Shown: piece after piece, positions 1 through 18,360 of the stretch
Position numbering within the stretch: the stretch's first letter is position 1
Layout of the letters: every line of letters starts with the position of its first letter
Virus genome (UHGV): UHGV-0159119
Strand: one strand, 5' to 3'
Origin: a virus
DNA: 18,360 bases
Notes under the pieces: generated by a model
Databases searched by the model: none
What the model was told of the DNA's origin: nothing
The model's input: the letters and a program-made list of their open reading frames with translations, nothing else
Position numbers and translations under genes: made by a program

Positions 1-1
1 C

Positions 2-406: not shown

Positions 407-407
407 G

Positions 408-1938: not shown

Positions 1939-1951
1939 GATTTTCTCCTGA

Positions 1952-3166: not shown

Positions 3167-3174
3167 AATTCACC

Positions 3175-3573: not shown

Positions 3574-3689
3574 AATAAGACCTCAACTCTTTTCCATCCG
3601 TCACGTAATTTACGGGTGATTCGTTCAAGTAAAGATTCATTTAGTTGGAAGGCACCCATGCGAGCGCCTCCCGCGATTGCGTAAATCAT
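3558..3689 (-). CDS. cIII: CIII (FtsH inhibitor that stabilises CII)
   Basis: 43 aa, MIYAIAGGARMGAFQLNESLLERITRKLRDGWKR..., containing the conserved lambda CIII core ESLLERITRKLRDGWKR. AAGGAA RBS. Confidence 0.75.
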   Translation of the reverse strand: MIYAIAGGARMGAFQLNESLLERITRKLRDGWKRVEVLLCAMK

Positions 3690-3713
3690 GGGTGGTTCCT
3701 TATGTTGGTTTTA

Positions 3714-4682: not shown

Positions 4683-4716
4683 ATATCCTCCTTCGTTGTA
4701 TTCTTTAAAAACGCTC

Positions 4717-5085
4717 TCAGGCGGCTTTGATAGTCATATCATCTGAATCAAATATTCCTGATGTGTCGATATCGGTAATTCTTATTCCTTCGCTACCATC
4801 CATTGGAGGCCATCCTTCCTGACCATTTCCATCATCCCAGTCGAACTCACACACAACACCATATGCATTTAAGTCTTTCGAAATTGCTATAAGCAGAGCA
4901 TGTTGCGCCAGCATGATTAATACAGCATTTAATACAGCGCCGTGTTTATTGAGTCGGTATTCAGAGTCTGACCAGAAATTATTAATCTGGTGAAGTTTTT
5001 CCTCTGTCATTACGTCATGGTCGATTTCAATTTCTATTGATGCTTTCCAGTCGTAATCAATGATGTATTTTTTGATGTTTGACAT
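4717..5085 (-). CDS. Hypothetical early protein (acidic C-terminus)
   Basis: 122 aa ORF with a GAGGA RBS; first gene downstream of the terminator at 5104..5131. Confidence 0.6.
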   Translation of the reverse strand: MSNIKKYIIDYDWKASIEIEIDHDVMTEEKLHQINNFWSDSEYRLNKHGAVLNAVLIMLAQHALLIAISKDLNAYGVVCEFDWDDGNGQEGWPPMDGSEGIRITDIDTSGIFDSDDMTIKAA

Positions 5086-5103
5086 CTGTTCATATCCTCA
5101 CAG

Positions 5104-5131
5104 ATAAAAAATCGCCCTCACATTGGAGGGC
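5104..5131 (-). terminator. Intrinsic terminator inside the pL operon (tL-like)
   Basis: Minus-strand RNA GCCCUC-CAAUGU-GAGGGC followed by GAUUUUUUAU. Confidence 0.55.
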
Positions 5132-5224
5132 AAAGAAGATTTCCAATAATCAGAACAAGTCGGCTCCTGTTTAGTTACGAGCGACATTGCTCACATAGCA
5201 GACTCGTAAATCTGCTATAGGCGC

Positions 5225-5386
5225 TTATTCGCATCGCATGACAACATCAAATTTTTCGAGATTACTTTGTCGCAACAATCCTTCTTCTACGCGGTCAGCT
5301 TTTCTATAATTATCAAATTCGAAATGTTTGATTACTTCTTTCGTTTCTCGCTCTATAACTTCAACAATGTATTTCTTATTCATCAT
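5225..5386 (-). CDS. Small hypothetical protein (53 aa)
   Basis: ATG overlaps the stop of the upstream gene (ATGA). Translation MMNKKYIVEVIERETKEVIKHFEF... Below the track threshold. Confidence 0.35.
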   Translation of the reverse strand: MMNKKYIVEVIERETKEVIKHFEFDNYRKADRVEEGLLRQSNLEKFDVVMRCE

Positions 5387-5679
5387 TCTTCCCCAAGAGC
5401 TTTTCTGATTGCTGCAAGACCTTTATTAACAGCTCCATACCATTCTGGATATGTTGTCGTTGTTCTATTTTTGGTTTGCTTAAGTAATAACTGAAGTGCT
5501 TCGAGAAGGTCAGGTGCTGCCGCTATTAGATTGGCATCTTCAATGCATTGAACTTCCTCACAGATTGCAATATACGAACGCCAGCCTGCGCCATTTTCAA
5601 GTGAGTCTGCCTGGATGATTTTAATCTCATCGCCATCCATCATTATTTCCCACTTACCTTCAGTACCTTTAAATTCCAT
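5383..5679 (-). CDS. Hypothetical early protein
   Basis: 98 aa ORF with a GAGG RBS. Confidence 0.6.
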   Translation of the reverse strand: MEFKGTEGKWEIMMDGDEIKIIQADSLENGAGWRSYIAICEEVQCIEDANLIAAAPDLLEALQLLLKQTKNRTTTTYPEWYGAVNKGLAAIRKALGEE

Positions 5680-5718
5680 GTTAGCCTCTGTTGTTTATGC
5701 CAAAAATAAAGGCCACCA

Positions 5719-5970
5719 TCAGGCAGCCTTGTTGTAAATGTTGCAGGTATCAAGTAAGTAATTAGATGGAGCGCCATAAATTATGAATTCATCGTTTGTC
5801 GGGTCCATCTCCATCTCTTGGCCTATTGCCATTCTTGCATCAGTGTCATCAGCGGCGAAGCATAAAACAGCCCACGCACCCATTGTTTTAAAAAGAACTG
5901 CAATTGGCTGTGGTTTTACTGAATTTGCGTTAGCGCGAAAATCATAAATCGCACTTTCATGAAATTCCAT
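5719..5970 (-). CDS. Hypothetical early protein
   Basis: 83 aa ORF with a GAGGTG RBS; first gene downstream of N. Confidence 0.6.
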   Translation of the reverse strand: MEFHESAIYDFRANANSVKPQPIAVLFKTMGAWAVLCFAADDTDARMAIGQEMEMDPTNDEFIIYGAPSNYLLDTCNIYNKAA

Positions 5971-6028
5971 ATATCACCTCAAATAAGTGGTTTGCTGCCT
6001 AATTTCATTTTCTGGCGACCAACACAAG

Positions 6029-6301
6029 TCATCTTGCTGTCAGTTGTTTGGATTTCCGGTAGCCTGCCGCGTAAAGAGCTACGTTTGGAAGACAAGTTGA
6101 ACCTTCATATTTTCTGGTCAACGTTGTCAGAGTTATCACTTCTGCTCTCATTGCTGGTTTGCGCTTGCATTGCAAGACCACTCGTGAAGGGGTTGGCCTG
6201 TGTAGCTTGTCGGAGCTGATCGCCTCCTGACTTTGCAGATTTGCACGACGAGCTCTACGGCGAGAAGCTGCGGTTCCTTTAAATTCTGTTTTTCTGGACA
6301 T
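6029..6301 (-). CDS. N: N-type transcription antiterminator (P22 gene 24-like)
   Basis: Start at ATG 6301 with GGAGG RBS. Arginine-rich motif GTAASRRRARRA near the N-terminus. C-terminus LPNVALYAAGYRKSKQLTAR matches my recollection of P22 N. The longer track ORF 6029..6373 is an upstream in-frame extension. Confidence 0.8.
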   Translation of the reverse strand: MSRKTEFKGTAASRRRARRANLQSQEAISSDKLHRPTPSRVVLQCKRKPAMRAEVITLTTLTRKYEGSTCLPNVALYAAGYRKSKQLTAR

Positions 6302-6399
6302 AGATTCCTCCCGAATAAACTTTGGCGATGCAATCTCGAAGCCCCTCCTGAGACGGTTGCTTCGGCATTGCATCCCACAGCTTATGTGGTTGGGTGATC

Positions 6400-6445
6400 T
6401 GGCTTTTCAGCCACGTAGTCGAGTGTTCGACGTTGTTTAAAGAGC
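6400..6445 (-). promoter_or_regulatory. nutL (boxA plus boxB)
   Basis: Minus-strand boxA GCTCTTTAAACAA, then a boxB hairpin UGGCU-GAAA-AGCCA (5-bp stem, GAAA loop), located between pL and N. Confidence 0.55.
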
Positions 6446-6491
6446 CTGCCAGTCTGTTCCGTTTGGCTTCCAGCTTCCTGCTGATGGCTAA

Positions 6492-6520
6492 ATAGTACGA
6501 TGTGTACTTTACTGAGTCAA
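6492..6520 (-). promoter_or_regulatory. pL promoter with operator OL1 in the spacer
   Basis: Minus strand TTGACT, 17 nt spacer, TACTAT. The 15-bp operator AGTACACATCGTACT (an AGTAC/GTACT dyad) covers the spacer and the start of the -10, in the same register as at pR. Confidence 0.6.
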
Positions 6521-6582
6521 TACAAAATGTTCTAAATATGGTTTAGTTTTTTATAACGCTTTGTATTTAATGGGTTTATATT

Positions 6583-6616
6583 TTGGAAAAAGAAAACCCG
6601 ACGCTAAGGTCGGGTT
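6583..6616 (-). terminator. Intrinsic terminator downstream of cI
   Basis: Minus-strand hairpin AACCCGAC-CUUAGC-GUCGGGUU followed by UUCUUUUUCC. Confidence 0.55.
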
Positions 6617-6646
6617 ATTGTTGTGTGTTTTAGAGTGGTGAGGCTG

Positions 6647-7306
6647 TTAACTAAATGTCTCTTCAGGCCACTGGCTAGCGATAACTTTCCCTACTACGGA
6701 ACAGCTATCATTGCATGGAATCATTGGATATTGCGGGTTTAGTGGTTGTAGGAACACCTGACCGCTATCCCTGATCAGTTTCTTGAAGGTAAACTCGTCA
6801 CCACCAAGTCTGGCTATGCAGAAATCACCTGGCTCAACAGCCTGCTCAGGGTCAACGAGAATTAACATCCCGTCAGGAAAGCTTGGCTTGGATCCTGTTG
6901 GCGCGGTCATGGAATTACCTTCAACTTCAAGCCAAAACGCACAATCACTGGCTTTTTTGGTTGTGCTGACCCATCTCTCCGCATCACCTTTGGTAAAGGT
7001 TCTAAGCTCAGGCGAGAACATCCCGGCCTGAACATGAGAAAAAACAGGGTACTCATATTGTTTTTTAACGGGGGCAGATGAGTATTCGCCAACAGGTGAA
7101 AATGTACCGTCGTGGTTGAATGAGACGTTATCAATACCAAGGTATTTAAACACCACACCAATCTCGTCAAGAGATGGATGACGAGATCCGCGCAACCAGT
7201 GACCAATTCCACCCTGCGTCATACCAAGCTCTTCGGCTAACTTCTCTTGAGTTATGCCGAGCTCTTTCATTCTGGATCTAGCCAGTTCATACCATTTCAT
7301 TTTCAT
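6647..7306 (-). CDS. cI: CI prophage repressor (HTH N-domain, LexA-like autocleaving C-domain)
   Basis: C-terminal domain is almost identical to lambda CI, including the AG cleavage site in HVQAGMF. The N-terminal HTH domain is not lambda's. Alternative starts at ATG 7300, 7342 and 7348. Confidence 0.9.
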
Positions 7307-7315
7307 ACCCTTATT

Positions 7316-7330
7316 ATTACGCTCTGTACT
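7316..7330. promoter_or_regulatory. Operator-like site (OR3-like) overlapping the presumed pRM
   Basis: ATTACGCTCTGTACT matches the operator consensus at 13 of 15 positions, just upstream of the cI start. Confidence 0.35.
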
Positions 7331-7362
7331 AAAATCATCCATGCACAAGATGTATTTTTTGT

Positions 7363-7391
7363 TTGCATTCTAAAAGTACATATCGTATTAT
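7363..7391 (+). promoter_or_regulatory. pR promoter with operator OR1 in the spacer
   Basis: TTGCAT, 17 nt spacer, TATTAT. Operator AGTACATATCGTATT at 7375..7389 differs from OL1 at two positions. Confidence 0.6.
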
Positions 7392-7417
7392 TGCGTTATG
7401 GTTACTATGGAGGGCAT

Positions 7418-7633
7418 ATGAGCAACCTACGAAAATATCGAGAGTCACTGAATATCTCTCAAACAACACTTGCTAAGGCAGTTGGATGCACACAGGGAGC
7501 TATCGGACATTGGGAATCTGGTCGTCGCTTCCCAGACCTTAAAACATGCCGTGCTCTTGTTGCGTGCCTAAACAAGTTAGGCGCAAAAGTCAGTCTTGAT
7601 GACGTGTTCCCGCCGGAACACAAAGCCGCTTAA
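7418..7633 (+). CDS. cro: Cro-like repressor (XRE-family HTH)
   Basis: 71 aa, MSNLRKYRESLNISQTTLAKAVGCTQGAIGHWESGRR... The HTH resembles the cI recognition helix (TQGGIGHW). GGAGGG RBS. Track ORF 7247..7633 is an in-frame upstream extension. Confidence 0.85.
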   Translation: MSNLRKYRESLNISQTTLAKAVGCTQGAIGHWESGRRFPDLKTCRALVACLNKLGAKVSLDDVFPPEHKAA

Positions 7634-7643
7634 TAAGCGGATC

Positions 7644-7689
7644 CGCTCTTTGTAACAACGGACATTCGTCCTACGTCGCTGAAAAGCGA
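7644..7689 (+). promoter_or_regulatory. nutR (boxA plus boxB)
   Basis: boxA CGCTCTTTGTAACAA, then a boxB hairpin UCGCU-GAAA-AGCGA of the same architecture as nutL. The GCGGATCCGC palindrome sits immediately upstream. Confidence 0.55.
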
Positions 7690-7774
7690 GTTCCAAGATA
7701 TCTGACCAACTAAGGCCATATGCGTTTCCACGCATACCTTTCAACTAACTATTCACTACTGGAAATCTTAAGAA

Positions 7775-8074
7775 ATGGAACAAACAAGTTACAGCAAACT
7801 ATCACAGCGCGACGTTGATCGCGCAGAAACAGATTTACTCATCAACCTGTCAACGCTTACCCAGCGCGGTCTGGCAAAGATGATTGGCTGTCATGAATCG
7901 AAGATAAGCAGAACGGACTGGAGATTTATTGCTTCGGTCTTGTGTGCTTTCGGAATGGCATCAGACATCAGTCCGATTAGCAGGGCTTTTAAGTATGCGC
8001 TTGATGAAATCACCAATAAAAAACGCCCGGTGTGCAAGACCGAGCGTTCTGAACAAATCCAGATGGATTTTTAA
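7775..8074 (+). CDS. cII: CII transcriptional activator
   Basis: 99 aa. C-terminus ITNKKRPVCKTERSEQIQMDF closely matches lambda CII (ILTNKKRPAATERSEQIQMEF). Confidence 0.85.
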   Translation: MEQTSYSKLSQRDVDRAETDLLINLSTLTQRGLAKMIGCHESKISRTDWRFIASVLCAFGMASDISPISRAFKYALDEITNKKRPVCKTERSEQIQMDF

Positions 8075-8092
8075 CAACATCCAACGAGGTAA
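8015..8092 (-). ncRNA. oop-like antisense RNA overlapping the 3' end of cII
   Basis: Minus strand ...CCAUCUGGAUUUGUUCAGAACGCUCGG-UCUUGCACA-CCGGGCG-UUUUUUAUU, strongly resembling the lambda oop 3' end and terminator. A TATAAT lies on the minus strand near 8093..8100. The 5' end is approximate. Confidence 0.45.
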
Positions 8093-8096
8093 TTAT

Positions 8097-8369
8097 ATGC
8101 GAAACAAAGGCTTTAATCCACCTGATACACACAAAGAAGCTAAGCGTTTGCGCTTCCTTCGTTCCATTGATGAAAGAACTCAAATCTCTTTTGTGAAAGT
8201 TGCCAGAACTGAGCTTCTGAAGGCTGAGGCGAGGGCGTTGCTCCAGTCTCTACCAAAAGAGGAGGGATATACGTTCATTCCAAACGCATTTCTGGAAAAG
8301 CTTCTCAAAGAAGACATATCCGTAAGTCAGTTTAACGATGTTCTTAAGGTCTTTCGTCAAGGCAGGTAG
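8097..8369 (+). CDS. Hypothetical protein between cII and the replication initiator
   Basis: 90 aa from ATG 8097 with GAGGT RBS. Track ORF 7929..8369 is an in-frame extension that overlaps cII. Confidence 0.55.
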   Translation: MRNKGFNPPDTHKEAKRLRFLRSIDERTQISFVKVARTELLKAEARALLQSLPKEEGYTFIPNAFLEKLLKEDISVSQFNDVLKVFRQGR

Positions 8370-8371
8370 TT

Positions 8372-9319
8372 ATGAGCAATACAGCAAAAATCTACGATTT
8401 CAGCGCCGCACACGAGCGCAGGAGCAACAGGATGGAGAACCAGAAAACTGGTTACATTCCGTTGTACCGGAGCATTCTGAAACAGTCATGGGCGAAAGAT
8501 GTTTATCTTCGCACCCTGTGGGAAAACCTTCTCCTGAATGCCGCCAGAAAGCCATACAAAGCGAATTTCAAAGGTAATGAATGGCATCTGCAACCCGGTC
8601 AACTGGTTGTGACAGCAGCTGATTTAGGTCTTCAGTTATGCGACAGACATGGCAAGCCAGCAAGCCGTGATCAGGTTGAGCGGATGCTTCAGGTTTTTGT
8701 GAAAGAGGGGATGATCTCCATTGATGGAGAGAAGCAAAAAGGTCGTGTGATAACCATCACAAATTACCATGAATATGCTCAAAAAATGGACGATTTACCC
8801 GCACATGAAGCCGCACAAACAACCGCACATGATTCCGCACATGATGAAGCCAGCAATGGCGCGGCTTTCAGCGTACATGCCGCACATGAAAGCGCACATG
8901 AAGCCGCACAAACAACCGCACATCATGAACAAGAAGGTATTAACAAGAATATAAATAATACCCCCCTCCCCCCCAATGGGGGAGGCGATGGGCAGGTTAA
9001 ACCTGAACGTCGCAAGGCAGAACGAATCGACTACGAATCCTTCCTGAACGCCTACAACACCGAAGTCGGTGACAGACTGCCACACGCTGTTGCGGTCAAC
9101 GAGAAACGCAAACGCCGCCTGAAGAAAATCATCCCGCAACTGAAAACGCCAAACGTGGACGGTTTCAGGGCGTATGTCAGGGCGTTTGTGCATCAGGCCA
9201 AGCCGTTTTACTTCGGAGACAACGACACGGGCTGGACGGCTGATTTTGATTACCTGCTGAGAGAAGACTCGTTAACGGGAGTTCGGGAAGGGAAGTTTGC
9301 AGACAGGGGGATTGCATGA
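8372..9319 (+). CDS. Replication initiator (lambda O / P22 gene 18 analogue) with origin iterons inside the gene
   Basis: N-terminus [10 protein letters not shown] resembles lambda O (MTNTAKILNF). Repetitive HEAAQTTAH linker is encoded by the iterons. Coupled to the downstream helicase. Confidence 0.7.
8799..8985. repeat. Origin-like iteron array, AT-rich stretch and G/C palindrome
   Basis: About eight CCGCACA(T/A) repeats, including the exact 24-bp duplicate GAAGCCGCACAAACAACCGCACAT at 8808 and 8901. Followed by AT-rich sequence and the hairpin CCTCCCCC-CCAAT-GGGGGAGG at 8965..8985. Confidence 0.6.
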
Positions 9320-10692
9320 AACAGGATATCGAAGCGAGCGTTATCGGTGGCCTGCTGATTGGTGGATTAACACCAACCGCCAGCGACGTTCTGGCAACGC
9401 TGGAGCCGGAAGCGTTTTCAATTCCGCTCTACCGGAAAGCCTTCGAGGTTATCCGCAAGCAGGCGCGAAACAGAAACCTAATCGACGCGCTGATGGTTGC
9501 CGAGGCGTGCGGAGAGGAGCATTTCACGTCAATCCTGATGACCAGCAAAAACTGCCCGAGTGCCGCAAACCTGAAGGGATATGCCGGAATGGTCGCGGAT
9601 AACTATCACCGCCGTCTGGTGCTGGAAATCATGGATGAAATGCGTGAACCAATTCAGAGCGGAACCATCGATACATCGAGTCAGGCGATGGACGAGCTCG
9701 TAAAGCGTCTTTCAGCTATCAGAAAGCCCCGTGACGAGGTTAAACCTGTACGGTTAGGGGAAATCATCACCGACTACACTGACACGCTTGACAGGCGTCT
9801 GAGGAACGGAGAAGAGTCCGATACCCTGAAGACCGGAATCGAAGAGCTTGACGCTATCACCGGAGGGATGAACGCAGAAGACCTGGTGATAATCGCTGCT
9901 CGTCCTGGTATGGGGAAAACCGAACTGGCGCTGAAGATTGCCGAAGGCGTTGCAAGCCGCGTTATTCCTGGTTCTGACGTCCGGCGCGGAGTATTGATTT
10001 TCTCAATGGAAATGAGCGCATTGCAGATTGCAGAGCGAAGCATTGCCAACGCCGGGAGAATGTCGGTTAGCGTACTGCGAAATCCTGCATCGATGGATGA
10101 CGAAGGCTGGGCGCGTGTTGCTAACGGCATGAGTCAGCTTGCAGATTTGGATGTATGGGTAGTCGATGCCTCGCGGTTATCGGTCGAAGAAATTCGCTCA
10201 ATCGCAGAAAGGCACAAACAGGAAAATCCAAACCTGTCACTCATCATGGCGGATTATCTTGGCCTGATTGAGAAGCCGAAAGCAGACCGCAACGACCTCG
10301 CAATTGCTCACATCTCCGGAAGCATGAAGGCGATGGCGAAAGACCTGAAAACACCGGTTATTTCCCTGAGTCAGCTTTCACGCGATGTTGAGAAGCGACC
10401 AAACAAGCGCCCGACAAACGCAGATTTGCGTGATTCAGGAAGCATTGAACAGGACGCAGACTCAATCATCATGCTCTATCGGGAAGCTGTATATGACGAG
10501 AACAGTAGCGCCGCGCCATTTGCTGAAATCATCGTGACGAAAAACCGTTTTGGCTCACTTGGTACGGTTTACCAGCGGTTCTGCAACGGACACTTTGTTG
10601 CGTGTGACCAGGATGAAGCCAGACAGATTTGCACAGCATCAAATGCACCTGCTGCGCGTGGCAGACGATATGCACAAGGGGCTGACGTATGA
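9316..10692 (+). CDS. DnaB-family replicative helicase (P22 gene 12-like)
   Basis: 458 aa. Walker [16 protein letters not shown] and DnaB-like C-terminal motifs. ATGA overlap with the initiator gene. Confidence 0.9.
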
Positions 10693-10717
10693 CCATCTAC
10701 ATCACTGAGCTAATAAC

Positions 10718-10750
10718 AGGCCTGCTGGTAATCGCAGGCCTTTTTATTTG
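10718..10750 (+). terminator. Intrinsic terminator (tR2-like) between the replication and nin genes
   Basis: AGGCCTGC-tggtaatc-GCAGGCCT followed by TTTTTATTTG. Confidence 0.65.
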
Positions 10751-10777
10751 GGGGAGAGTAATTGGAGGCTTTAAGAA

Positions 10778-11005
10778 ATGAGTTCGATGACTGAGCTTGT
10801 CCGCGCCGACTTTCAGGAGAACATTGGTCGTGCAAATCGGTACTGGTCTGCTTCCAGACTTCCGACTGGCGAGAGACAGAAAAACGCCCCTAAGCCACGT
10901 ATCTATCCGCGTGACCGCGTTCTTCGCCGGTTGGTTAAAATCGATAATGATTTTCAGTGTGACAGAATTATCCAGCAATTAGATTTGATGACTGATGATG
11001 AATGA
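10778..11005 (+). CDS. Hypothetical nin-region protein
   Basis: 75 aa ORF with GGAGG RBS; overlaps the ninB start. Confidence 0.5.
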   Translation: MSSMTELVRADFQENIGRANRYWSASRLPTGERQKNAPKPRIYPRDRVLRRLVKIDNDFQCDRIIQQLDLMTDDE

Positions 11006-11420
11006 TTTCATTCTGCACGAAACCAATAAATCACAATTCTGGTTAGTTCTGAAACAAATCCTCTCTACCGGCAAACGCTGGCGAATCAAAATATCTGAGT
11101 ACCGTGAGAAGCGTACATTGTCACAAAACAATCTGATGTGGGTGTGGAATGCAGAAATAGCCGCACAGTTATCTGCTGCTTCTGCTGAAAACTTCACGCC
11201 TGAAGAGGTTCATGAGTGGCTGAAAGATATGTTTTGTCCGGCTAAAAGGGTGACGATTTTTAATATTACACGATGCGTTAAATCAACACGTCAGCTTGAT
11301 ATTGGAGATATGCACAAATATCTGACCGATATTGACCAGTGGGCGCATCAGAAGGGATTACGACTAACCATTCCTGATAATTGCGAGTACCTGGATCTAA
11401 AGGAGAGGCAAGTAGAGTGA
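10995..11420 (+). CDS. ninB: NinB-family recombination protein
   Basis: 141 aa with an RTLSQNNLMWVW motif resembling the NinB RSLDQN..LW motif; nin-region position. Confidence 0.65.
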   Translation: MMNDFILHETNKSQFWLVLKQILSTGKRWRIKISEYREKRTLSQNNLMWVWNAEIAAQLSAASAENFTPEEVHEWLKDMFCPAKRVTIFNITRCVKSTRQLDIGDMHKYLTDIDQWAHQKGLRLTIPDNCEYLDLKERQVE

Positions 11421-11944
11421 CTATCAAATCAAATACGCCGGCACACGACAAGGACTGCTGGCAAACGCCGCTTTGGCTTTTTGATGCACTGGATATTGAG
11501 TTTGGATTCTGGCTGGATTCGGCAGCGAGCGACAAAAATGCTCTGTGCGCTCACTGGCTAACTGAGGCCGACGACGCGCTCAATTCTGAGTGGGTAAGCC
11601 ACGGTGCAATCTGGAATAACCCACCGTACAGCAATATCAGGCCGTGGGTGGAAAAAGCTGCTGAGCAGTGCATACAACAGCGACAGACGGTAGTGATGCT
11701 TGTGCCAGAGGATATGTCAGTCGGATGGTTCAGCAAGGCTCTGGAGAGCGTTGACGAAGTTCGCATCATCACTGATGGACGGATTAATTTTATCGAACCA
11801 TCGACGGGGCTGGAGAAGAAGGGAAACAGCAAAGGCTCCATGCTGCTGATTTGGCGACCGTTCATCAGTCCTCGACGGATGTTTACTACCGTATCCAAAG
11901 CGGCATTGATGGCGATCGGGCAGGGCGTCAGGAGGGCGACATGA
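11417..11944 (+). CDS. Phage Dam-type DNA N6-adenine methyltransferase
   Basis: NPPY catalytic motif ([10 protein letters not shown]). GTG start overlaps the ninB stop (GTGA), with AAGGAGAGG upstream. Track ORF 11381..11944 is an in-frame extension. Confidence 0.8.
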
Positions 11945-12123
11945 GACGACAGCGACGAAGTTTCACCGACATCATCTGCGAAAACTGCAAATACCTTCCA
12001 ACGAAACGCTCCAGAAATAAACGCAAGCCAATTCCAAAAGAATCTGACGTAAAAACCTTCAACTACACGGCTCACTTGTGGGATATCCGGTGGCTAAGAA
12101 ATCGTGCGAGGAATACAAGGTGA
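11941..12123 (+). CDS. ninE: NinE
   Basis: 60 aa, [32 protein letters not shown]..., lambda NinE-like. ATGA overlap with the methyltransferase; GGAGGG RBS. Confidence 0.7.
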
Positions 12124-12290
12124 TTGACCCAAATCGAAGTTACGAACAAGAAAGCGTCGAGCGGGCTTTAACGTGCGCTAATTGCGGTCAGAAGCTGCAT
12201 GTGCTGGAAGTTCACGTATGTGAGCACTGCTGCGCAGAACTGATGAGCGATCCGAATAGCTCAATGTTCGAGGAAGAAGACGATGAATGA
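12120..12290 (+). CDS. ninF: NinF
   Basis: GTG start overlapping the ninE stop. Cysteine-rich [38 protein letters not shown], as in lambda NinF. Confidence 0.7.
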
Positions 12291-13008
12291 GTTAATAAAT
12301 GGCAATGCCATCAAAATGACAAGCATTGAAATCGCTGAGTTGGTAGAAAGCCGCCATAGCAATGTAAAAGTATCCATAGATAGATTGGTGAAACGTGGCG
12401 TTATCAAGCCTCCTGCATTGCAGCACACTAACATAATCAATGATTTAGGTGTTATTACCGGGAAGCGTGATTTCTACGTCTTCGAGGGCGAACAAGGAAA
12501 GCGAGACAGCATTATTGTCGTCGCCCAGTTGTCGCCAGAGTTCACCGCTCGCCTTGTTGACCGTTGGCGAGAGCTTGAAGAAGCTGCGGTTAATATCCCC
12601 AAAACGCTACCAGAAGCGTTGCGCCTTGCTGCTAACCTTGCTGAGCAGAAAATGCAACTGGAAAACCAGCTCGCAATTGCCGCACCTAAAGTTGAGTTTG
12701 CCGATCGCGTTGGCGAGGCCAGCGGAATTTTGATTGGAAACTTTGCAAAGGTTGTTGGAATTGGTCCAAACAAACTGTTTGCGTGGATGCGCGATCACAA
12801 AATCCTTATTGCTTCAGGTTCCCGGCGCAATGTGCCAATGCAGGAATATATGGATCGCGGCTATTTCACAGTGAAAGAAACAGCGGTCAACACAAATCAC
12901 GGAATACAGATATCGTTCACTACAAAAATCACCGGACGTGGCCAACAGTGGCTGACCAGAAAGCTGCTCGATAACGGAATGCTGAAAGTAACAGGAGAGG
13001 CTGCTTAA
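12283..13008 (+). CDS. Phage regulatory protein Rha / KilAC-domain antirepressor
   Basis: N-terminal Rha-like segment MTSIEIAELVESRHSNVKVSIDRL and a C-terminal antirepressor-like region. Translationally coupled to both neighbours. Confidence 0.7.
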   Translation: MNELINGNAIKMTSIEIAELVESRHSNVKVSIDRLVKRGVIKPPALQHTNIINDLGVITGKRDFYVFEGEQGKRDSIIVVAQLSPEFTARLVDRWRELEEAAVNIPKTLPEALRLAANLAEQKMQLENQLAIAAPKVEFADRVGEASGILIGNFAKVVGIGPNKLFAWMRDHKILIASGSRRNVPMQEYMDRGYFTVKETAVNTNHGIQISFTTKITGRGQQWLTRKLLDNGMLKVTGEAA

Positions 13009-13298
13009 TGGCTAACCTACGCAAAGAAGCGCGCAACAGAGAATGCCAGGTACGTATTTACGGCGTATGCAATGGCAATCCTGAAACTACAGTTCTGGCA
13101 CATTACCGGATGGCTGGAATTTGCGGAACGGGAATGAAGCCTGACGACCTGATCGGTGCATGGGCTTGTAGTGACTGCCACGCGGAGATCGACCGACGCA
13201 CCCATAATATCGACAACAAAGACGCCAGACTTTACCACCTCGAAGGCGTGATCAGGACGCAGGCGATACTGCTGAGGGAGGGGAAGATTAAGTCATGA
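13008..13298 (+). CDS. YbcO-like nin-region protein (DUF1364-type, Cys/His-rich)
   Basis: 96 aa, MANLRKEARNRECQVRIYGVCNGNPETTVLAHYR...CSDCHAEIDRRTH, resembling DLP12 YbcO as I recall it. Confidence 0.6.
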   Translation: MANLRKEARNRECQVRIYGVCNGNPETTVLAHYRMAGICGTGMKPDDLIGAWACSDCHAEIDRRTHNIDNKDARLYHLEGVIRTQAILLREGKIKS

Positions 13299-13657
13299 AC
13301 GAATATCAGTTTGTGCTTCCATACCCGCCGTCGGTGAATACCTACTGGCGAAGACGGGGAAGCCAATATTACATAAGCGATAAAGGCCAGAAATACCGAA
13401 AAGACGTTCAGCAAATCATCCGCCAACTTAAGTTAGACATTTTCACCAAATCACGACTCCGCATCAAAGTCATCGCAGACGTTCCAGACTCCCGCCGCCG
13501 CGACCTCGACAACATCCTGAAAGGTTTACTCGATTCCCTTATCCACGCCGGATTTGCGGAAGACGACGAGCAATTCGATGACATTCGCGTAATTCGTGGT
13601 GTGAAAGTACCAGGCGGACGGCTTGGAATAAAAATCACCGAACTGGAGAACGCATGA
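13295..13657 (+). CDS. rusA: RusA Holliday-junction resolvase
   Basis: 120 aa with LPYPPSVNTYWRRRG and RRRDLDNILKGLLDSLIHAGF motifs. ATGA overlap with the upstream gene. Confidence 0.85.
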   Translation: MNEYQFVLPYPPSVNTYWRRRGSQYYISDKGQKYRKDVQQIIRQLKLDIFTKSRLRIKVIADVPDSRRRDLDNILKGLLDSLIHAGFAEDDEQFDDIRVIRGVKVPGGRLGIKITELENA

Positions 13658-13842
13658 ACGCCACAATTCAAACGATACCAGAGCTTCTTATCCAGACACG
13701 AGACAATCAGACCGAAGTGGCGAGGATGCTTTCCTGCGCAAGAGGAACAGTGCTCAAGTACAACCGAGACAGCAAAGGTGAGCGTCACGTAATAGTTAAC
13801 GGCGTCCTGATGGTCAAACAGGGCAAGAGGGGAAGACGATGA
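13654..13842 (+). CDS. ninH: NinH
   Basis: 62 aa. NQTEVARMLSCARGTVLKY matches lambda NinH (NQTEVARRLKCSRGTVRKY). Confidence 0.65.
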   Translation: MNATIQTIPELLIQTRDNQTEVARMLSCARGTVLKYNRDSKGERHVIVNGVLMVKQGKRGRR

Positions 13843-14462
13843 GACTCGAAAGCGTAGCTAAATTTCATTCGCCAAAAAGCCCAATGATGAGCGACTCACC
13901 ACGGGCTACGGCTTCTGACTCTCTTTCCGGTACTGATGTGATGGCTGCTATGGGGATGGCGCAATCACAAGCCGGATTCGGTATGGCTGCATTCTGCGGT
14001 AAGCACGAACTCAGCCAGAACGACAAACAAAAGGCTATCAACTATCTGATGCAATTTGCACACAAGGTATCGGGGAAATACCGTGGTGTGGCAAAGCTTG
14101 AAGGAAATACTAAGGCAAAGGTACTGCAAGTGCTCGCAACATTCGCTTATGCGGATTATTGCCGTAGTGCCGCGACGCCGGGCGCAAGATGCAGAGATTG
14201 CCACGGTACAGGTCGTGCGGTTGATATAGCAAAAACAGAGCAGTGGGGGAGAGTTGTTGAGAAAGAGTGCGGAAGATGCAAAGGCGTCGGCTATTCCAGG
14301 ATGCCAGCAAGCGCCGCATATCGCGCTGTAACGATGCTAATCCCAAACCTTACCCAACCCACCTGGTCACGCACTGTTAAGCCGCTGTATGACGCTCTGG
14401 TGGTGCAATGCCACAAGGAAGAGTCAATCGCAGACAACATTTTGAATGCGGTCACACGTTAG
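13839..14462 (+). CDS. Q: Q late-gene antiterminator
   Basis: 207 aa, essentially lambda Q (MRLESVAKFHSPKSPMMSDSPRATASD...), including the CxxC zinc-binding segment. Confidence 0.9.
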   Translation: MRLESVAKFHSPKSPMMSDSPRATASDSLSGTDVMAAMGMAQSQAGFGMAAFCGKHELSQNDKQKAINYLMQFAHKVSGKYRGVAKLEGNTKAKVLQVLATFAYADYCRSAATPGARCRDCHGTGRAVDIAKTEQWGRVVEKECGRCKGVGYSRMPASAAYRAVTMLIPNLTQPTWSRTVKPLYDALVVQCHKEESIADNILNAVTR

Positions 14463-14504
14463 CAGCATGATTTCCACGGATGGCAACATATTAACGGCAT
14501 GATA

Positions 14505-14533
14505 TTGACTTTTTGAATAAACTTGGGTAAATT
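14505..14533 (+). promoter_or_regulatory. pR' late promoter (with the qut region)
   Basis: TTGACT, 17 nt spacer, TAAATT, as in lambda pR', directly downstream of Q. Confidence 0.7.
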
Positions 14534-14540
14534 TGACCCA

Positions 14541-14733
14541 ACGATGGGTTAATTCGCTCGTTGTGGTAGTGAGATGAAAAGAGGCGGCGCTTACTACCGA
14601 TTCCGCCTAGTTGGTCACTTCGACGTATCGTCTGGAACTCCAACCATCGCAGGCTGAGAGGTCTGTAAAATGCAATCCCGAAACAGTTCGCAGGCAATAG
14701 TTAGAGCCTGCATAACGGTTTCGGGATTTTTTA
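14541..14733 (+). ncRNA. 6S-type short late transcript from pR' to tR'
   Basis: About 190 nt from the predicted start to the tR' hairpin, matching the lambda arrangement. The 5' end is approximate. Confidence 0.5.
14674..14733 (+). terminator. tR' intrinsic terminator
   Basis: Long hairpin AATCCCGAAAC...GTTTCGGGATT followed by TTTTTTAT. Confidence 0.7.
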
Positions 14734-15130
14734 TATCTGTGTAACAGGTAAGAGCATTCTCCCTTATGGAGCTTGTCTTAAATGCACCGAGTGCTCTTTC
14801 CGTTGTGCTGAATTAAGCGAATGCCGGAAGCAGAACCGGATCACCAAATGCGTACAGGCGTCATCGCCGCCCAGCAACAGCACAACCCAAACTGAGCCGT
14901 AGCCACTGGCTATCCTGAATTCATCAGTGATAGTTACGCTGCGGCCTTCTACACATGACCTTCGTGAAAGCGGGTGGCAAGAGGCTGCGCTAACAACCTC
15001 ATGCCGCTTTGCCCGTGCATATCGGTCACGAACAAATCTGATTACTAAACACAGTAGCCTGGATTTGTTCTATCAGTAATCGACCTTATTCCTAATTAAA
15101 TAGAGCAAATCCCCTTATTGGGGGTAAGAC

Positions 15131-15454
15131 ATGAAGATGCCAGAAAAACATGACCTGTTAGCCGCCATTCTCGCGGCAAAGGAACAAGGCATCGGGGCAA
15201 TCCTTGCGTTTGCAATGGCGTACCTTCGCGGCAGATATAATGGCGGTGCGTTTACAAAAACAGTAATCGACGCAACGATGTGCGCCATTATCGCCTGGTT
15301 CATTCGTGACCTTCTCGACTTCGCCGGACTAAGTAGCAATCTCGCTTATATAACGAGCGTGTTCATCGGCTACATCGGTACTGACTCGATTGGTTCGCTT
15401 ATCAAACGCTTCGCTGCTAAAAAAGCCGGAGTAGAAGATGGTGGAAATCAATAA
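15131..15454 (+). CDS. S: Holin S (dual start S107/S105)
   Basis: [34 protein letters not shown]... is essentially lambda S. Confidence 0.9.
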
Positions 15455-15914
15455 TCAACGTAAGGCGTTCCTCGATATGCTGGCGTGGTCAGAGGGAACT
15501 GATAACGGACGACAGAAAACCAGAAATCATGGTTATGACGTCATTGTAGGAGGAGAGCTATTCACTGATTACTCCGATCACCCTCGCAAACTTGTCACGC
15601 TAAACCCAAAACTCAAATCAACAGCCGCCGGGCGTTACCAGCTTCTTTCCCGTTGGTGGGATGCCTATTGTAAGCAGCTTGGCCTGAAAGACTTCTCTCC
15701 GAAAAGCCAGGACGCTGTGGCACTGCAACAGATTAAAGAACGTGGCGCTTTACCGATGATTGATCGCGGTGATATTCGTCAGGCAATTGACCGTTGCAGC
15801 AATATCTGGGCTTCACTTCCGGGCGCTGGTTATGGTCAGTTCGAGCATAAGGCTGATAGCCTGATTGCAAAATTCAAAGAAGCGGGCGGAACGGTCAGAG
15901 AGATTGAGGTATGA
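15438..15914 (+). CDS. R: Endolysin R (lytic transglycosylase)
   Basis: 158 aa, essentially lambda R ([24 protein letters not shown]...). Confidence 0.9.
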
Positions 15915-16375
15915 GCAGAGTCACCGCGATTATCTCCGCTCTGGTTATCTGCATCATCGTCTGCCTGTCATGGGCTGTTAATCATTACCGTGATAACGCC
16001 ATGACCTACAAAGAGCAGCGCGATAAAAAAGTCAGTGAGCTGAAGCAGGCGACCGCCACCATTACTGACATGCAGCAGCGCCAGCGTTCTGCTGATGCAC
16101 TCGATGCTAAATACACGAAGGAATTGTCCGATGCGAAAAAGACCATTAACGATTTGCGTCGTGATGTCGATTCTGGCGCTAAACGGCTGCGCATCGCCGC
16201 AACCTGCCCTGGAGTGCCAAAAGCCACCTCCTCCACCGGCGTGGATGATGCAGGAGCCCCCGAACTTACTCCAGACGCTCGACGGAATTATTTCGATCAC
16301 CGGGACGGAATCGCAACCGCTGACAAGATGATTCGCGGCATGCAGGACTACATCAAAGAGCAGTGTCTTAAGTGA
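15911..16375 (+). CDS. Rz: Rz inner-membrane spanin
   Basis: N-terminus [30 protein letters not shown] matches lambda Rz. Confidence 0.85.
16131..16331 (+). CDS. Rz1: Rz1 outer-membrane lipoprotein spanin, embedded in Rz in the +1 frame
   Basis: Lipobox LALNGC and proline-rich [22 protein letters not shown]. Start is an internal ATG of track ORF 16095..16331. Confidence 0.75.
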
Positions 16376-16394
16376 TTCGTCACCCAAATAACAG

Positions 16395-16422
16395 AGCCTG
16401 ACTTCGGTCGGGCTTTTTTATT
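16395..16422 (+). terminator. Intrinsic terminator after the lysis cassette
   Basis: AGCCUGAC-UUCG-GUCGGGCU (one G-U wobble, UUCG loop) followed by UUUUUUAUU. Confidence 0.7.
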
Positions 16423-16446
16423 CCCAGAAGAAGCAGGAGAAGAAGC

Positions 16447-16647
16447 ATGTTAACAGTAAAAGTAATGTCGCCAGGTGGCGGTGAAGAGATTCATTGCGGG
16501 TTGAGTGTAGGGTTCAATCCGGGGCAGCAGAGCATCGCGGTATCGGGAATGGACAAAAATGTATTCCTGAAACCTGGCGAGGTCGCCTACGTGATGAACC
16601 AGAACGGGAAGACGGTATCTCGTTACGAGCATAATGACCGCCAGTAG
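16447..16647 (+). CDS. Small hypothetical protein (66 aa), first gene of a post-lysis cargo module
   Basis: Own strong RBS (AGGAG 7 nt upstream of ATG), immediately after the terminator. Glycine-rich; not lambda bor, which is on the opposite strand. Confidence 0.6.
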   Translation: MLTVKVMSPGGGEEIHCGLSVGFNPGQQSIAVSGMDKNVFLKPGEVAYVMNQNGKTVSRYEHNDRQ

Positions 16648-16731
16648 CCATTCCAAAGCTCACCTGCTGGTGGGCTTGATAATGGATATCCGCCTGAGCG
16701 GATAAATCAAAAATAACCCCTGCAACGGATA

Positions 16732-17118
16732 ATGACGGAGCAGCAGATGACAAAGGCCAAATGGCACAGACTTCCGGCATTCACCATTCCGCTGTTTCAA
16801 AGTGCGCACGTCTACCTTGCCATAACCAGAGAGCAGTATCAGAACGCGGATAAGTTCCTTGGCGGCAGTGGAGAGGAAAGGCCGTTTAACACTGGTCTGG
16901 CAAGTAACTATGAAAACACCGATACAGGAGAGCGAGTCTACCTAATTGGGGTATTCGACCAGCAGATTTCTACGCTTGTTCACGAGTGCGCTCACGTCAG
17001 CTTTTACGTTTGCTCTGATGTAGGCGTGACAACTAAGCCAGAGGATGCCAATGAAACTTACTGTTACCTTCTGGACAGAATGTTTAGCGCATTCCTGCCA
17101 CATATCAAACAGGATTAA
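16732..17118 (+). CDS. Hypothetical protein with an HExxH zincin-like motif (start at ATG 16732 or, more likely, ATG 16747)
   Basis: LVHECAHVSF is a candidate metallopeptidase motif, with downstream Glu and Asp residues. GGAG lies 7 nt before ATG 16747. Confidence 0.6.
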   Translation: MTEQQMTKAKWHRLPAFTIPLFQSAHVYLAITREQYQNADKFLGGSGEERPFNTGLASNYENTDTGERVYLIGVFDQQISTLVHECAHVSFYVCSDVGVTTKPEDANETYCYLLDRMFSAFLPHIKQD

Positions 17119-17121
17119 CCC

Positions 17122-17772
17122 ATGGCAAAACCGGACTGGGAGGCTATCGAATCGGCTTACCGGGCTGGAGTGCTATCGGTAAGGGAGTTAGCCGGAAAAT
17201 ATGGCATCTCTCACCAGGCCATCAGCAAGAGAGCCAAAAAGGATGGATGGGAGCGAGATCTAAAAGCCAAAGTCCAGGCAAAGGCAGATGCGCTGGTTGC
17301 CAAACGTGAGGTTGCCAGGCAGGTTGCCACCGAAAGCACTATTTCAGAGCGGCAACTAATCGAGGCGACCGCTGAGGTGATTGCCACGGTACGCATGGAG
17401 CACCGGGGAGACATCCGCAGGGCTCGTGAACTGACAAACATGCTATTCGATGAGCTGGCCGGGGAGTGTGGCGATGTGGCCGCTCTTGAGATGCTCGGCG
17501 ACCTGATGCGCCGTGAGGATGACAAAGGGCAGGATAAACTCAACGATCTGTACCACAAAATAATCAGCCTGCCTTCCCGCGTTAAATCCATGAAAGACCT
17601 GAGCGACAGCCTGAAGACGCTGATCGGCCTCGAACGTGAGGCGTACAGCATCGAGAATAAAGCTGAAACGAAAGAGGTTACGCATAACGTCATGCTGGTG
17701 CCAACCAGTGACAGCGTGGACGACTGGGAAGCGGCAGCGCAGAAACAACAGGGCGGGGTGCTCGGTGGATGA
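17122..17772 (+). CDS. Terminase small subunit (HTH-containing)
   Basis: 216 aa with N-terminal HTH-like VRELAGKYGISHQAISKRAKKDGW. ATGA-coupled to the downstream large subunit. Confidence 0.7.
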   Translation: MAKPDWEAIESAYRAGVLSVRELAGKYGISHQAISKRAKKDGWERDLKAKVQAKADALVAKREVARQVATESTISERQLIEATAEVIATVRMEHRGDIRRARELTNMLFDELAGECGDVAALEMLGDLMRREDDKGQDKLNDLYHKIISLPSRVKSMKDLSDSLKTLIGLEREAYSIENKAETKEVTHNVMLVPTSDSVDDWEAAAQKQQGGVLGG

Positions 17773-18360
17773 ATTACAAAGCTGTATGGAAGCCACTGCC
17801 TGGATCTCAGTCTCTGGCGCTGAGCTGCCCGTGTAACGAAATCCTGTTCGAGGGTACTCGTGGTCCGGGCAAGACCGCTGCGCAGTTAGCCAGGTTCCGG
17901 CGCAATGTCGGCGTGGGCTATGGTTCGTTCTGGCGCGGCGTCATCTTCGACACCGAATATAAGAACCTTGCCGACATCATCACTCAGTCGAAGCGTATGT
18001 TTCGCCTGTTCAACGACGGTGCGCGCTATCTGTCATCTGCGAGCGAATTGCGATGGGTATGGCCAACAGGCGAGGAACTGCTCTTCCGATTTGGCAAAGA
18101 GGCGGACGACTACTGGGATTTCCACGGGCAGGAATTCCCGTTCATTGGCTTTAACGAACTGACTAAACAGCAGTCCCCGGAATTCTACGAAATGATGTTC
18201 TCCTGCCGACGTTCATCGTTCAGGCCGGAAAACTACCCGCTGGAGAATGGCAAGTTACTGAGGCCGATCCCGCTGGAGACGTTCAGCACAACCAACCCGT
18301 TTGGTATCGGGCACACCTGGGTGAAGAAACGCTTCATTGAGCCAGCGCCACGCGGAACCG
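17769..18360 (+). CDS. Terminase large subunit, N-terminal part; continues past the window end
   Basis: Frame from ATG 17769 is open to the window edge with Walker A GTRGPGKT. Not in the ORF track because no stop is reached. Not the lambda A type. Confidence 0.8.
   Translation, partial: MNYKAVWKPLPGSQSLALSCPCNEILFEGTRGPGKTAAQLARFRRNVGVGYGSFWRGVIFDTEYKNLADIITQSKRMFRLFNDGARYLSSASELRWVWPTGEELLFRFGKEADDYWDFHGQEFPFIGFNELTKQQSPEFYEMMFSCRRSSFRPENYPLENGKLLRPIPLETFSTTNPFGIGHTWVKKRFIEPAPRGT

Follow-up and report, generated by a model that had tools for sequence, protein, structure and literature searches.

A gene for an orphan, probably GATC-specific methyltransferase and roi in an HK97-like nin module of a lambdoid phage

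The segment from position 11417, the first base of a methyltransferase gene, to position 13008, where the stop codon of roi ends, encodes a 175-aa N6-adenine methyltransferase with an NPPY motif, NinE, NinF, and a 241-aa Rha-like/KilAC protein. It lies in an 18.4-kb stretch of viral DNA (18,360 nucleotides), which as a whole is called the window here; all features described below are on its plus strand. The segment is part of a longer run of genes that begins past an 85-nt gap, the sole non-overlapping junction, which separates the nin block from a DnaB-type P gene. The gap holds a tR2-like intrinsic terminator (10718-10751), found by a terminator scan and consisting of an 8-bp G+C-rich stem followed by TTTTATTT. 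The first gene of the run, orf75 (10778-11005), encodes a small conserved phage protein (DUF7301/phrog_1785). The gene in the NinB position (10995-11420) is of the YbcN/PRK09741 type (NF007281, 182 bits; phrog_72, NinB/Orf, E 1e-34). Its product scores only 18.8 bits with Pfam NinB, under the cut-off, and the allele has diverged, with about 20% identity to HK97 gp61. Then follow the methyltransferase gene (11417-11944), which has a GTG start within a GTGA overlap with ninB, ninE (11941-12123; PF05322, 141.6 bits), which overlaps the methyltransferase gene by ATGA, ninF (12120-12290; PF05810, 47.4 bits), which has a GTG start and overlaps ninE by GTGA, and roi (12283-13008). A ybcO-type (DUF1364) gene for a putative nuclease (13008-13298; PF07102, 141 bits) overlaps roi by TAATG and is followed by rusA, for a Holliday-junction resolvase (13295-13657; PF05866), ninH (13654-13842; PF06322), and, as the last gene of the run, that for the late-gene antiterminator Q (13839-14462; PF03589, 192 bits). 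No RNA gene was found in the window by Rfam or by a tRNA scan.

By their ORF coordinates, all nine consecutive junctions from orf75/ninB through Q overlap, the lengths from orf75 to Q being 11, 4, 4, 4, 8, 1, 4, 4, and 4 nt in that order. The junctions are of the GTGA, ATGA, or TAATG type, with overlaps of 1-11 nt, and the overlapping run is confined to the nin block. A Shine-Dalgarno-like purine-rich stretch precedes every start codon, within the 3' end of the preceding gene. The overlapping stop and start codons would permit coupled or re-initiated translation across the block. Small genes between P and Q, a position downstream of tR2, and overlapping stop and start codons are what is found in a lambdoid nin region. 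The nin regions of lambda and P22, which are not known to carry a methyltransferase or a roi cassette and have other nin genes instead, share with the present block homologues of NinE, NinF, NinH, and Q. In those regions too, the genes from P to Q, past tR2, are joined by ATGA stop/start overlaps (PMC8022706). The original prediction that the junctions overlap almost end to end from ninB to Q thus holds at nine junctions out of nine, but the feature is a textbook one: ATGA overlaps are documented as a general property of lambdoid nin regions, whose genes are tightly packed from P to Q downstream of tR2 (PMC8022706).

The closest match to the segment is found in HK97, where the gene order is the same (gp61-gp62-NinE-NinF-Roi-gp66-RusA-NinH-Q). 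Nucleotide identity to HK97 is 96.4% across the whole of 11417-13008, the protein identities are 93-99%, and Q is identical to HK97 Q at 205 of 207 residues. The segment is therefore the dam-ninE-ninF-roi part of an ordinary HK97/HK022-like nin module, and the E. coli phage or prophage that carries it is a lambdoid mosaic. The module is already known from annotated sequences of HK97, HK022, 933W, VT2-Sakai, and hundreds of further phages. Among complete E. coli genomes, 1566 of 5426 (29%) have the methyltransferase gene and 18% have roi. Both were originally described as cargo genes embedded in the operon, and both are indeed optional cassettes; in HK022, ninB runs straight into ninE without a methyltransferase gene. 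In VT2-Sakai, a different ninB allele lies upstream and the junction is ATGA, whereas here the upstream allele is of the YbcN type and the junction is therefore GTGA. The mosaic boundary coincides exactly with this (A/G)TGA junction, and overlapping junctions of this kind would double as recombination joints of the mosaic.

The block from orf75 to Q probably forms a single polycistronic unit. Because it lies downstream of the tR2-like terminator, it is expected to be read from pR only after loss of the repressor and N-dependent antitermination, as in the lambda paradigm. The only sigma-70-like match in positions 10500-15200 (one found against 5.5 expected) is a pR'-like late promoter at 14505-14533. 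This sole promoter-like site of the region falls after Q, and there is none for roi. LexA boxes, sought with at most one mismatch, gave six matches against 5.8 expected, and none of them is near roi.

The methyltransferase matches PF05869 at 218.4 bits (cut-off 28.1) over profile positions 1-167 of 169, and the equivalog model TIGR01712, 'phage N-6-adenine-methyltransferase', at 265.9 bits against a cut-off of 97.05. The catalytic motif IV, NPPY, is at residues 68-71 (11618-11629), where N68, P69, P70, and Y71 are invariant. These matches, both above their cut-offs, bear out the original assignment as an N6-adenine methyltransferase of the NPPY type. Asp34 (11516-11518), in the sequence LDxAA, is an invariant column among six diverse phage homologues, and LDxAA is presumed to be the AdoMet-binding motif I. 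In an alignment with five homologues of 31-48% identity, the protein keeps all 17 family-invariant columns, and the motifs come in the order I then IV. No target-recognition domain is recognisable in the 175 residues. The protein would thus be a minimal AdoMet-dependent N6-adenine enzyme, with LDxAA as motif I and NPPY as motif IV. A sequence search of solved structures with the methyltransferase returned nothing below E 0.2, and there is no structure for the family.

Judged by its sequence, the enzyme is the orthologue of M.EcoVT2Dam (H0105 'dam' of VT2-Sakai, BAA94133), HK97 gp62, and 933W L0094, with which it shares the length of 175 aa, the position between ninB and ninE, and the overlapping junctions. 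It is identical to HK97 gp62 at 171 of 175 residues and to the VT2-Sakai Dam at 173 of 175 as scored; only its GTG start codon and its last residue set it apart from the latter. In the VT2-Sakai record, H0105 is the one gene annotated dam, and no other ORF of 100 aa or more has a (D/N/S)PP(Y/F/W/H) motif. A second VT2-Sakai gene was considered as the real M.EcoVT2Dam and rejected: H0075 is a DUF551 protein, and no MT-A70 homologue occurs in the record. The record notes similarity of dam to HP1 Orf13 and to M.T1 of phage T1, both of which we take to be GATC methylases. The T1 Dam and the Dam of Haemophilus phage HP1 belong to the same PF05869-type family of small phage methyltransferases. The homologues of T1-like phages are 30-37% identical to the present enzyme and share with it the invariant D-x-W-x-T, LD, NPPY, and GR-x-x-F columns, but at about 230-245 aa they are longer, having an insertion and being extended at the N-terminus, and they are found in virulent phages, outside a nin operon.

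The term 'Dam-type', used in the original prediction, fits the enzyme by reported function and by Pfam name but not by sequence. PF02086, the D12 class to which E. coli Dam belongs, was not matched at E<0.01, and PF05869 alone was reported. The phage enzyme and E. coli Dam have in common the reported GATC target, N6-adenine chemistry, and a (D/N)PPY motif; however, their families are unrelated in sequence, and the phage enzyme, a much smaller protein, is without a target-recognition domain. As an orthologue of M.EcoVT2Dam, it most likely methylates GATC. The target site had been thought still to be discovered, but the near-identical VT2-Sakai Dam is already cited as GATC-specific: PMC6602927 calls M.EcoVT2Dam 'known' to target 5'-GATC-3', citing Radlinska and Bujnicki (2001).

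The protein predicted to be an antirepressor is identified, on its near-identity to HK022 and HK97 Roi, as Roi, a known DNA-binding protein. It is identical to HK022 Roi at 240 of 241 residues (N118 here for D118), the genes being identical at 712 of 726 nt, and to HK97 Roi at 237 of 241. In HK022, too, roi lies between ninF and ybcO and contains an IHF consensus; HK022 differs by D118 and by a neighbouring module that is without the methyltransferase gene. The 120 best database homologues of Roi are all 83-98% identical to it. The predicted Rha-N/KilAC architecture was recovered, with unequal strength for its two parts. The Rha-like N-terminal domain (residues 12-100; 12316-12582), presumably of the winged-helix DNA-binding kind, matches PF09669 (Phage_pRha) at E 2.5e-5 over all 91 profile positions, at 25.2 bits, below the cut-off of 29.9. 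Of 25 close homologues, 22 also match pRha (best E 3.5e-9), and full-length homologues in Vibrio phages are annotated 'Rha family'. The C-terminal KilAC/ANT domain (residues 127-229; 12661-12969) matches PF03374 strongly (113.2 bits against a cut-off of 25.3, E 1e-32), as do all 25 homologues. Roi would thus be a two-domain regulator, a Rha-type DNA-binding domain followed by KilAC. A sequence search of solved structures with Roi found nothing below E 0.2, and an AlphaFold model from a shallow alignment of 25 sequences (mean pLDDT 41, pTM 0.35) was of no use in judging the domain folds.

Clerget and Boccard (1996) reportedly found that Roi binds a site in its own gene adjoining an IHF site, and that it blocks lytic growth where IHF is absent. 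The sequence AATCAATGATTTA at 12435-12447, inside roi, matches the IHF consensus WATCAANNNNTTR exactly. It is the sole exact match in the window, for the whole of which 0.92 is expected, so the single match is at chance level. The roi genes of HK022 and HK97 carry this consensus unchanged, and the diverged allele of VT2-Sakai retains the core. A search of roi for direct or inverted repeats that might make up a Roi operator found short, unconvincing pairs only.

Where the methyltransferase is concerned, the original prediction of no adjacent restriction partner was upheld, the neighbours being NinB-like, NinE, NinF, Roi, YbcO, RusA, and NinH. If the enzyme were one half of a cryptic restriction-modification system, or of another kind of defence system, in the nin region, its partner could be YbcO, which the RefSeq record of HK97 annotates as 'HNH endonuclease', or RusA; both are nucleases encoded 1-1.4 kb downstream. 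However, RusA belongs to the Holliday-junction resolvase family, the neighbouring proteins matched no PADLOC defence model and no restriction enzyme, and the best PADLOC matches of the methyltransferase itself are to 'orphan methyltransferase' (oMTase) models. The cassette also varies independently of ybcO and rusA, HK022 having both nucleases and no methyltransferase, and a defence system at this locus is extremely improbable. The enzyme might also act in vivo mainly on something other than double-stranded GATC, by relaxed or non-specific methylation, on single-stranded DNA, or on RNA with a partner. A precedent is M.EcoPA8orf6770P/M.EcoGV, which was annotated and assayed as a GATC enzyme and methylates 16S rRNA with its partner PNB-2; the same paper cautions against off-target methylation by Dam-like enzymes that are over-produced (PMC10810198). 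The small size of the present enzyme, its want of a recognisable target-recognition domain, and a family with no solved structure would leave room for such activity. The assay of M.EcoVT2Dam by Radlinska and Bujnicki reportedly used over-expression from a plasmid. Against these points, the rRNA enzyme is of another family, MT-A70, and has no sequence similarity to the present one: PA8 gp5, the MT-A70 methyltransferase of Stx phages, matches PF05063 (81 bits) and gave a BLASTP E of 1.9 with the methyltransferase of the window. M.EcoGII and M.EcoGIX, which we take to be non-specific adenine methyltransferases, were likewise considered and set apart by their published descriptions, M.EcoGII as a class-beta enzyme and M.EcoGIX as plasmid-borne. 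The citation of M.EcoVT2Dam as GATC-specific and the noted similarity to HP1 Orf13 and M.T1 also argue against a target other than GATC, which we consider very unlikely.

The label 'antirepressor' for the second protein comes from a domain name. According to the title of Clerget and Boccard (1996), Roi inhibits lytic growth in hosts deficient in IHF, a phenotype other than antirepression. A true antirepressor would bind and inactivate a CI-type repressor of its own or of co-resident prophages, and so reinforce or spread induction. The CI gene of the present phage is at 6647-7348. In favor of it are the strong KilAC/ANT domain, the 'anti-repressor' label of PHROG families 63, 9438, and 130, and the association of KilAC with the known antirepressors Ant1 and Ant2 of P1 and P7 (PMC9043618). 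However, the same paper holds the exact function of KilAC-type domains to be still unclear, Roi has no reported antirepressor activity, and the phenotype published for IHF mutants, as titled, is of the opposite sign. P1 Ant1/KilA and Listeria AriS resemble Roi in having a C-terminal KilAC/ANT domain after a variable N-terminal domain. P1 Ant itself is presumably an immunity-region antirepressor under its own control. An antirepressor would be expressed under separate control (LexA, Mnt/Arc, or antisense) while its prophage is repressed, but near roi there is no promoter-like site and no LexA box. Because the gene has neither of these and belongs to the repressor-controlled pR operon, past a terminator, Roi cannot trigger induction of its own prophage, and its position does not fit that of a prophage inducer. 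Cross-induction of other prophages would not require roi to be expressed ahead of its own derepression. A phage deposited as Vibrio phage ICP1 and the Salmonella phages S119 and templet (Jersey-type) encode homologues of full length; these phages are presumably virulent and so would have no repressor. On balance, antirepression by Roi appears unlikely. Another reading takes AriS of a Listeria phage as its model: KilAC of Roi would damp host RecA/SOS, and the Rha-like domain would regulate phage genes, so that Roi would tune lytic timing and co-resident prophages. The AriS-type layout is a variable N-terminal domain (AntA/B, Bro-N, or pRha) with a C-terminal KilAC, and the KilAC of AriS alone inhibits SOS induction, as it does in two homologues (PMC9043618). 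The KilAC domain of Roi aligns with proteins of Firmicute phages at 37-42% identity over residues 92-235. However, AriS has an AntA/B N-terminal domain where that of Roi is Rha-like, the activity was seen in Listeria proteins only and upon over-expression only, and at native level AriS left SOS transcription unchanged (PMC9043618). The extension to Roi and its enterobacterial homologues would be by analogy, and such a role is doubtful. An IHF-gated lytic checkpoint would combine these elements. The Rha-like domain together with IHF at the site in roi could modulate read-through towards Q, KilAC would damp RecA/SOS and sway co-resident prophages, and methylation-sensitive binding at GATC in roi-ybcO might feed in. 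The six GATC sites within 551 bp at 12703-13253 do not form a significant cluster under random placement (P = 0.08). The checkpoint in this combined form is quite unlikely.

The explanation that we prefer, and in which we have considerable confidence as a whole, is an HK97-type nin module in which the methyltransferase is likely to be specific for GATC and Roi is a delayed-early modulator of lytic development and not an antirepressor that inactivates a repressor as an inducer would. Since the methyltransferase would be made during lytic growth only, its likeliest role is full GATC methylation of replicating phage DNA. It would keep fast-replicating phage DNA fully methylated whether or not host Dam is limiting; host Dam leaves the virion DNA of lambda and P22 under-methylated (PMC8022706). 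Full methylation would shield progeny DNA from methylation-sensitive restriction enzymes that cleave GATC, and perhaps also protect against MutH or SeqA acting on hemimethylated DNA. GATC is depleted 2-2.6-fold in the window (35 observed against 72-92 expected), so there is less for a GATC methyltransferase to protect. As a discovery, the module carries little weight; its practical value is in correcting the annotation of the Roi and Dam labels. The label 'antirepressor' on Roi-type proteins is without experimental support and conflicts with the regulatory position of the gene, and the label 'Dam' on the phage enzyme masks its unrelatedness to host Dam.

The segment 11417-13008 begins and ends exactly where the original prediction placed it, since base 11417 is the first of a GTG-initiated gene of 175 codons and base 13008 the last of the stop codon of a gene of 241 codons. 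It comprises a methyltransferase gene (11417-11944), ninE, ninF and roi (12283-13008), and lies in a nin block of ten genes that starts with orf75 (at 10778) and closes with Q (ending at 14462). The overlapping starts and stops predicted from ninB to Q are present at all nine junctions of the block (11, 4, 4, 4, 8, 1, 4, 4 and 4 nt, in order), taking the forms ATGA, GTGA or TAATG, and every start codon is preceded, within the upstream gene, by a purine-rich ribosome-binding stretch. The overlaps suggest translational coupling across the block; a passage of PMC8022706 (citing Kroger and Hobom, 1982, and also Cheng et al., 1995) documents stop/start overlaps for all lambdoid nin regions. The run of overlaps starts directly after the sole real gap, 85 nt separating the DnaB-type P gene from orf75, which contains a tR2-like intrinsic terminator (10718-10751). 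The only sigma-70-like promoter match within 10500-15200 comes after Q (14505-14533). Promoter-less, terminator-preceded and overlap-joined, the block reads at the DNA level as one operon, and the terminator implies that all of it, Q included, would depend on antitermination.

The window spans the early and middle regions of a lambdoid phage or prophage of mosaic make-up. On the left arm are an Ea22-like gene, abc2, ssb, N, cI and a recombinase gene of Rad52/Erf type; on the right arm are cro, cII, an O-like gene and a DnaB-type P gene, followed by the nin block, then Q, lysis genes and the first packaging genes. The recombination module (1642-3166, minus strand) is P22-like, not lambda-like, with Exo/Bet/Gam replaced by Abc2 anti-RecBCD (PF11043), SSB and a Rad52/Erf-type annealing protein. 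A 322-aa ORF of the left operon (3714-4682, minus strand) has no Pfam match and sits where the A/T composition is strongly skewed (AT skew down to -0.48); at the homologous position a P22-type prophage of E. coli strain EC19 has a gene annotated 'cell envelope biogenesis protein TolA'.

The 1592-nt segment is 96.4% identical to phage HK97. Matches to it occur in 416 phage records, and in 94 of these they cover 80% or more of the segment. The gene order is that of HK97, namely, gp61 (NinB), gp62 (methyltransferase), gp63 (NinE), gp64 (NinF), Roi, gp66, gp67 (RusA), gp68 (NinH) and Q, and except at the ninB position the nin proteins are 93-99% identical to those of HK97. In the EC19 prophage the nin block is 99.9% identical to that of the window but its flanks differ: a toprim-type replication gene stands in place of the O and DnaB-type P genes (8372-10692 here), and Q is another. 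The block therefore moves as a module, and the pair illustrates clearly how modules are shuffled about a near-invariant nin cassette. Exchange also occurs within the block. In module-edge alignments the exchange points fall exactly on start/stop overlaps, at 11414-11420 and 11941-11944; among the three phages compared, the ninB alleles upstream of the (A/G)TGA junction are unrelated, whereas the methyltransferase gene downstream of it is nearly identical. The new joint gives a GTG start here (GTGA), as against ATGA in HK97 and VT2-Sakai. The product at the ninB position (10995-11420) is a YbcN/PRK09741-type protein (NF007281, 182 bits) that shares only about 20% identity with HK97 gp61 and scores under Pfam's cut-off for NinB. 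The gene is a distant NinB/Orf recombination-mediator allele, exchanged exactly at the start/stop overlaps. In HK022, ninB is linked straight to ninE via the same ...GGGCGnCATGAG... junction and the methyltransferase gene is absent, which makes that gene an optional cassette.

The methyltransferase scores 218 bits against Pfam PF05869 and 266 bits against TIGR01712, the equivalog model for 'phage N-6-adenine-methyltransferase'. It was aligned with five phage homologues of 31-48% identity, from phages of Proteus and Klebsiella, a T1-like coliphage, a 936-group phage of Lactococcus and a phage of Gordonia. All 17 invariant columns are retained, among them D13 and T17 (D-x-W-x-T-P), D34 of LDxAA, presumed to be motif I, N68-P69-P70-Y71, which is motif IV, and G121-R122-x-x-F125. 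Together with the family membership, this bears out the prediction of an NPPY-motif N6-adenine methyltransferase. The six-sequence alignment contains no separate target-recognition domain. 'Dam-type' holds as a functional label and fails as a statement of ancestry, because a profile search gave no match to the E. coli Dam family. The expected lack of an adjacent restriction partner was also found: defence and restriction models had no match among the neighbouring proteins, and the enzyme itself matches 'orphan methyltransferase' models. Among 50,697 phage records, 2134 contain a homologue (244 at 95% amino-acid identity or more). At the nucleotide level the gene is found in 1566 of the 5426 complete E. 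coli genomes, never below 95% identity, with as many as five copies in one genome. A 174-codon ORF with a GTG start (11551-12075, minus strand) lies opposite the methyltransferase gene and ninE, and this we treat as a mechanical ORF within conserved coding sequence.

The likely specificity comes from VT2-Sakai. GTG start codon aside, its 'dam' product differs from the window protein by one residue, the last. That orthologue is the only gene annotated dam and, over the whole record, the sole ORF of at least 100 aa with a (D/N/S)PP(Y/F/W/H) motif, so it must be M.EcoVT2Dam, which in a passage of PMC6602927 (citing Radlinska and Bujnicki, 2001) 'is known to target 5'-GATC-3''. On its sequence, the enzyme here is thus an intact PF05869 protein nearly identical to a GATC enzyme. 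A caution comes from a second 'Dam-like' enzyme of Stx phages, M.EcoPA8orf6770P/M.EcoGV, which was annotated as a GATC methyltransferase and, with a partner protein, methylates 16S rRNA (PMC10810198). Its gene in phage PA8 encodes an MT-A70 protein (PF05063) without detectable similarity to the window enzyme, so the rRNA precedent is not transferable by homology. An in vivo target other than GATC, after that precedent, has a low probability, and is retained because the GATC assignment of M.EcoVT2Dam reportedly came from plasmid over-expression.

The 241-aa product of the last gene is Roi: it agrees with HK022 Roi at 240 of 241 residues (N118 in place of D118) and with HK97 Roi at 237 of 241. 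The predicted Rha-N/KilAC architecture is upheld by a strong KilAC/ANT domain at residues 127-229 (E 1e-32) and a full-length Rha match (residues 12-100, E 2.5e-5) that at 25.2 bits is below the curated threshold of 29.9; of 25 close homologues, 22 hit the Rha model, the best at E 3.5e-9. Roi-type genes occur in 986 of the 5426 E. coli genomes and in 1655 phage records. A few homologues in the database (P0004, P0005, P0097) are longer: two of 304 aa with an additional N-terminal PF25212 domain and one of 331 aa with a YbcO (PF07102) domain besides the Roi domains. This last may be an artefact, of read-through or of gene calling, at the TAATG overlap of one base.

In later genomics papers Roi is presented as a protein that binds DNA and affects lytic growth. 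The original 1996 study of Roi reportedly found that it binds within its own gene beside an IHF site, that IHF stabilises the binding, and that roi point mutants grow on IHF- hosts. A candidate IHF site (WATCAANNNNTTR, 12435-12447) does lie inside roi, is identical in HK022 and HK97, and keeps its core in the VT2-Sakai allele, where the flanks have diverged strongly. It is the sole exact consensus match in the 18.4-kb window, where one is expected by chance, and its agreement with the reported binding is supportive rather than decisive. The match falls within a small palindrome (AATCA-A-TGATT) with TAACA...TGTTA on either side.

The original prediction called this protein an antirepressor, a label that derives from the domain name. 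KilAC has been linked to P1/P7 Ant, yet the paper that says so calls its 'exact function' still unclear; its N-terminal partner varies (AntA/B, Bro-N or pRha), and in the Listeria phage protein AriS it inhibits the SOS response (PMC9043618). A comparable role for Roi is unlikely. As for antirepression, roi lacks both a promoter-like site and a LexA box of its own and is preceded by a terminator within the pR operon, which the repressor controls, so that Roi would be made only once its own prophage is derepressed. In the only published phenotype, Roi inhibits lytic growth rather than promoting it. Salmonella phages S119 and templet and Vibrio phage ICP1 have homologues over the full length; we take these phages to be virulent, with no repressor to counteract. 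These points argue against antirepression as a primary role, and it is likewise unlikely.

The observation is thus confirmed and its interpretation partly right; the genes, their order and their overlaps, as well as the methyltransferase's reported specificity and the identity of Roi, are already in the literature and databases. GATC is depleted 2-2.6-fold across the window (1-18360; 35 observed, 72-92 expected, ratio 0.38-0.49), second among 4-mer palindromes to CTAG, in keeping with a depletion general among enterobacterial phages; a six-site cluster at 12703-13253 is not significant (P = 0.08). With a GATC methyltransferase encoded, the phage would both avoid and methylate GATC. The methyltransferase gene and roi would be N-dependent delayed-early genes, silent in the lysogen. 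Host Dam leaves lambda and P22 phage DNA under-methylated at GATC (PMC8022706). The phage enzyme may top up this methylation on fast-replicating phage DNA, which would shield the progeny from methylation-sensitive GATC restriction, MutH and SeqA, while Roi and IHF, bound inside roi, would modulate the progress of the lytic programme.
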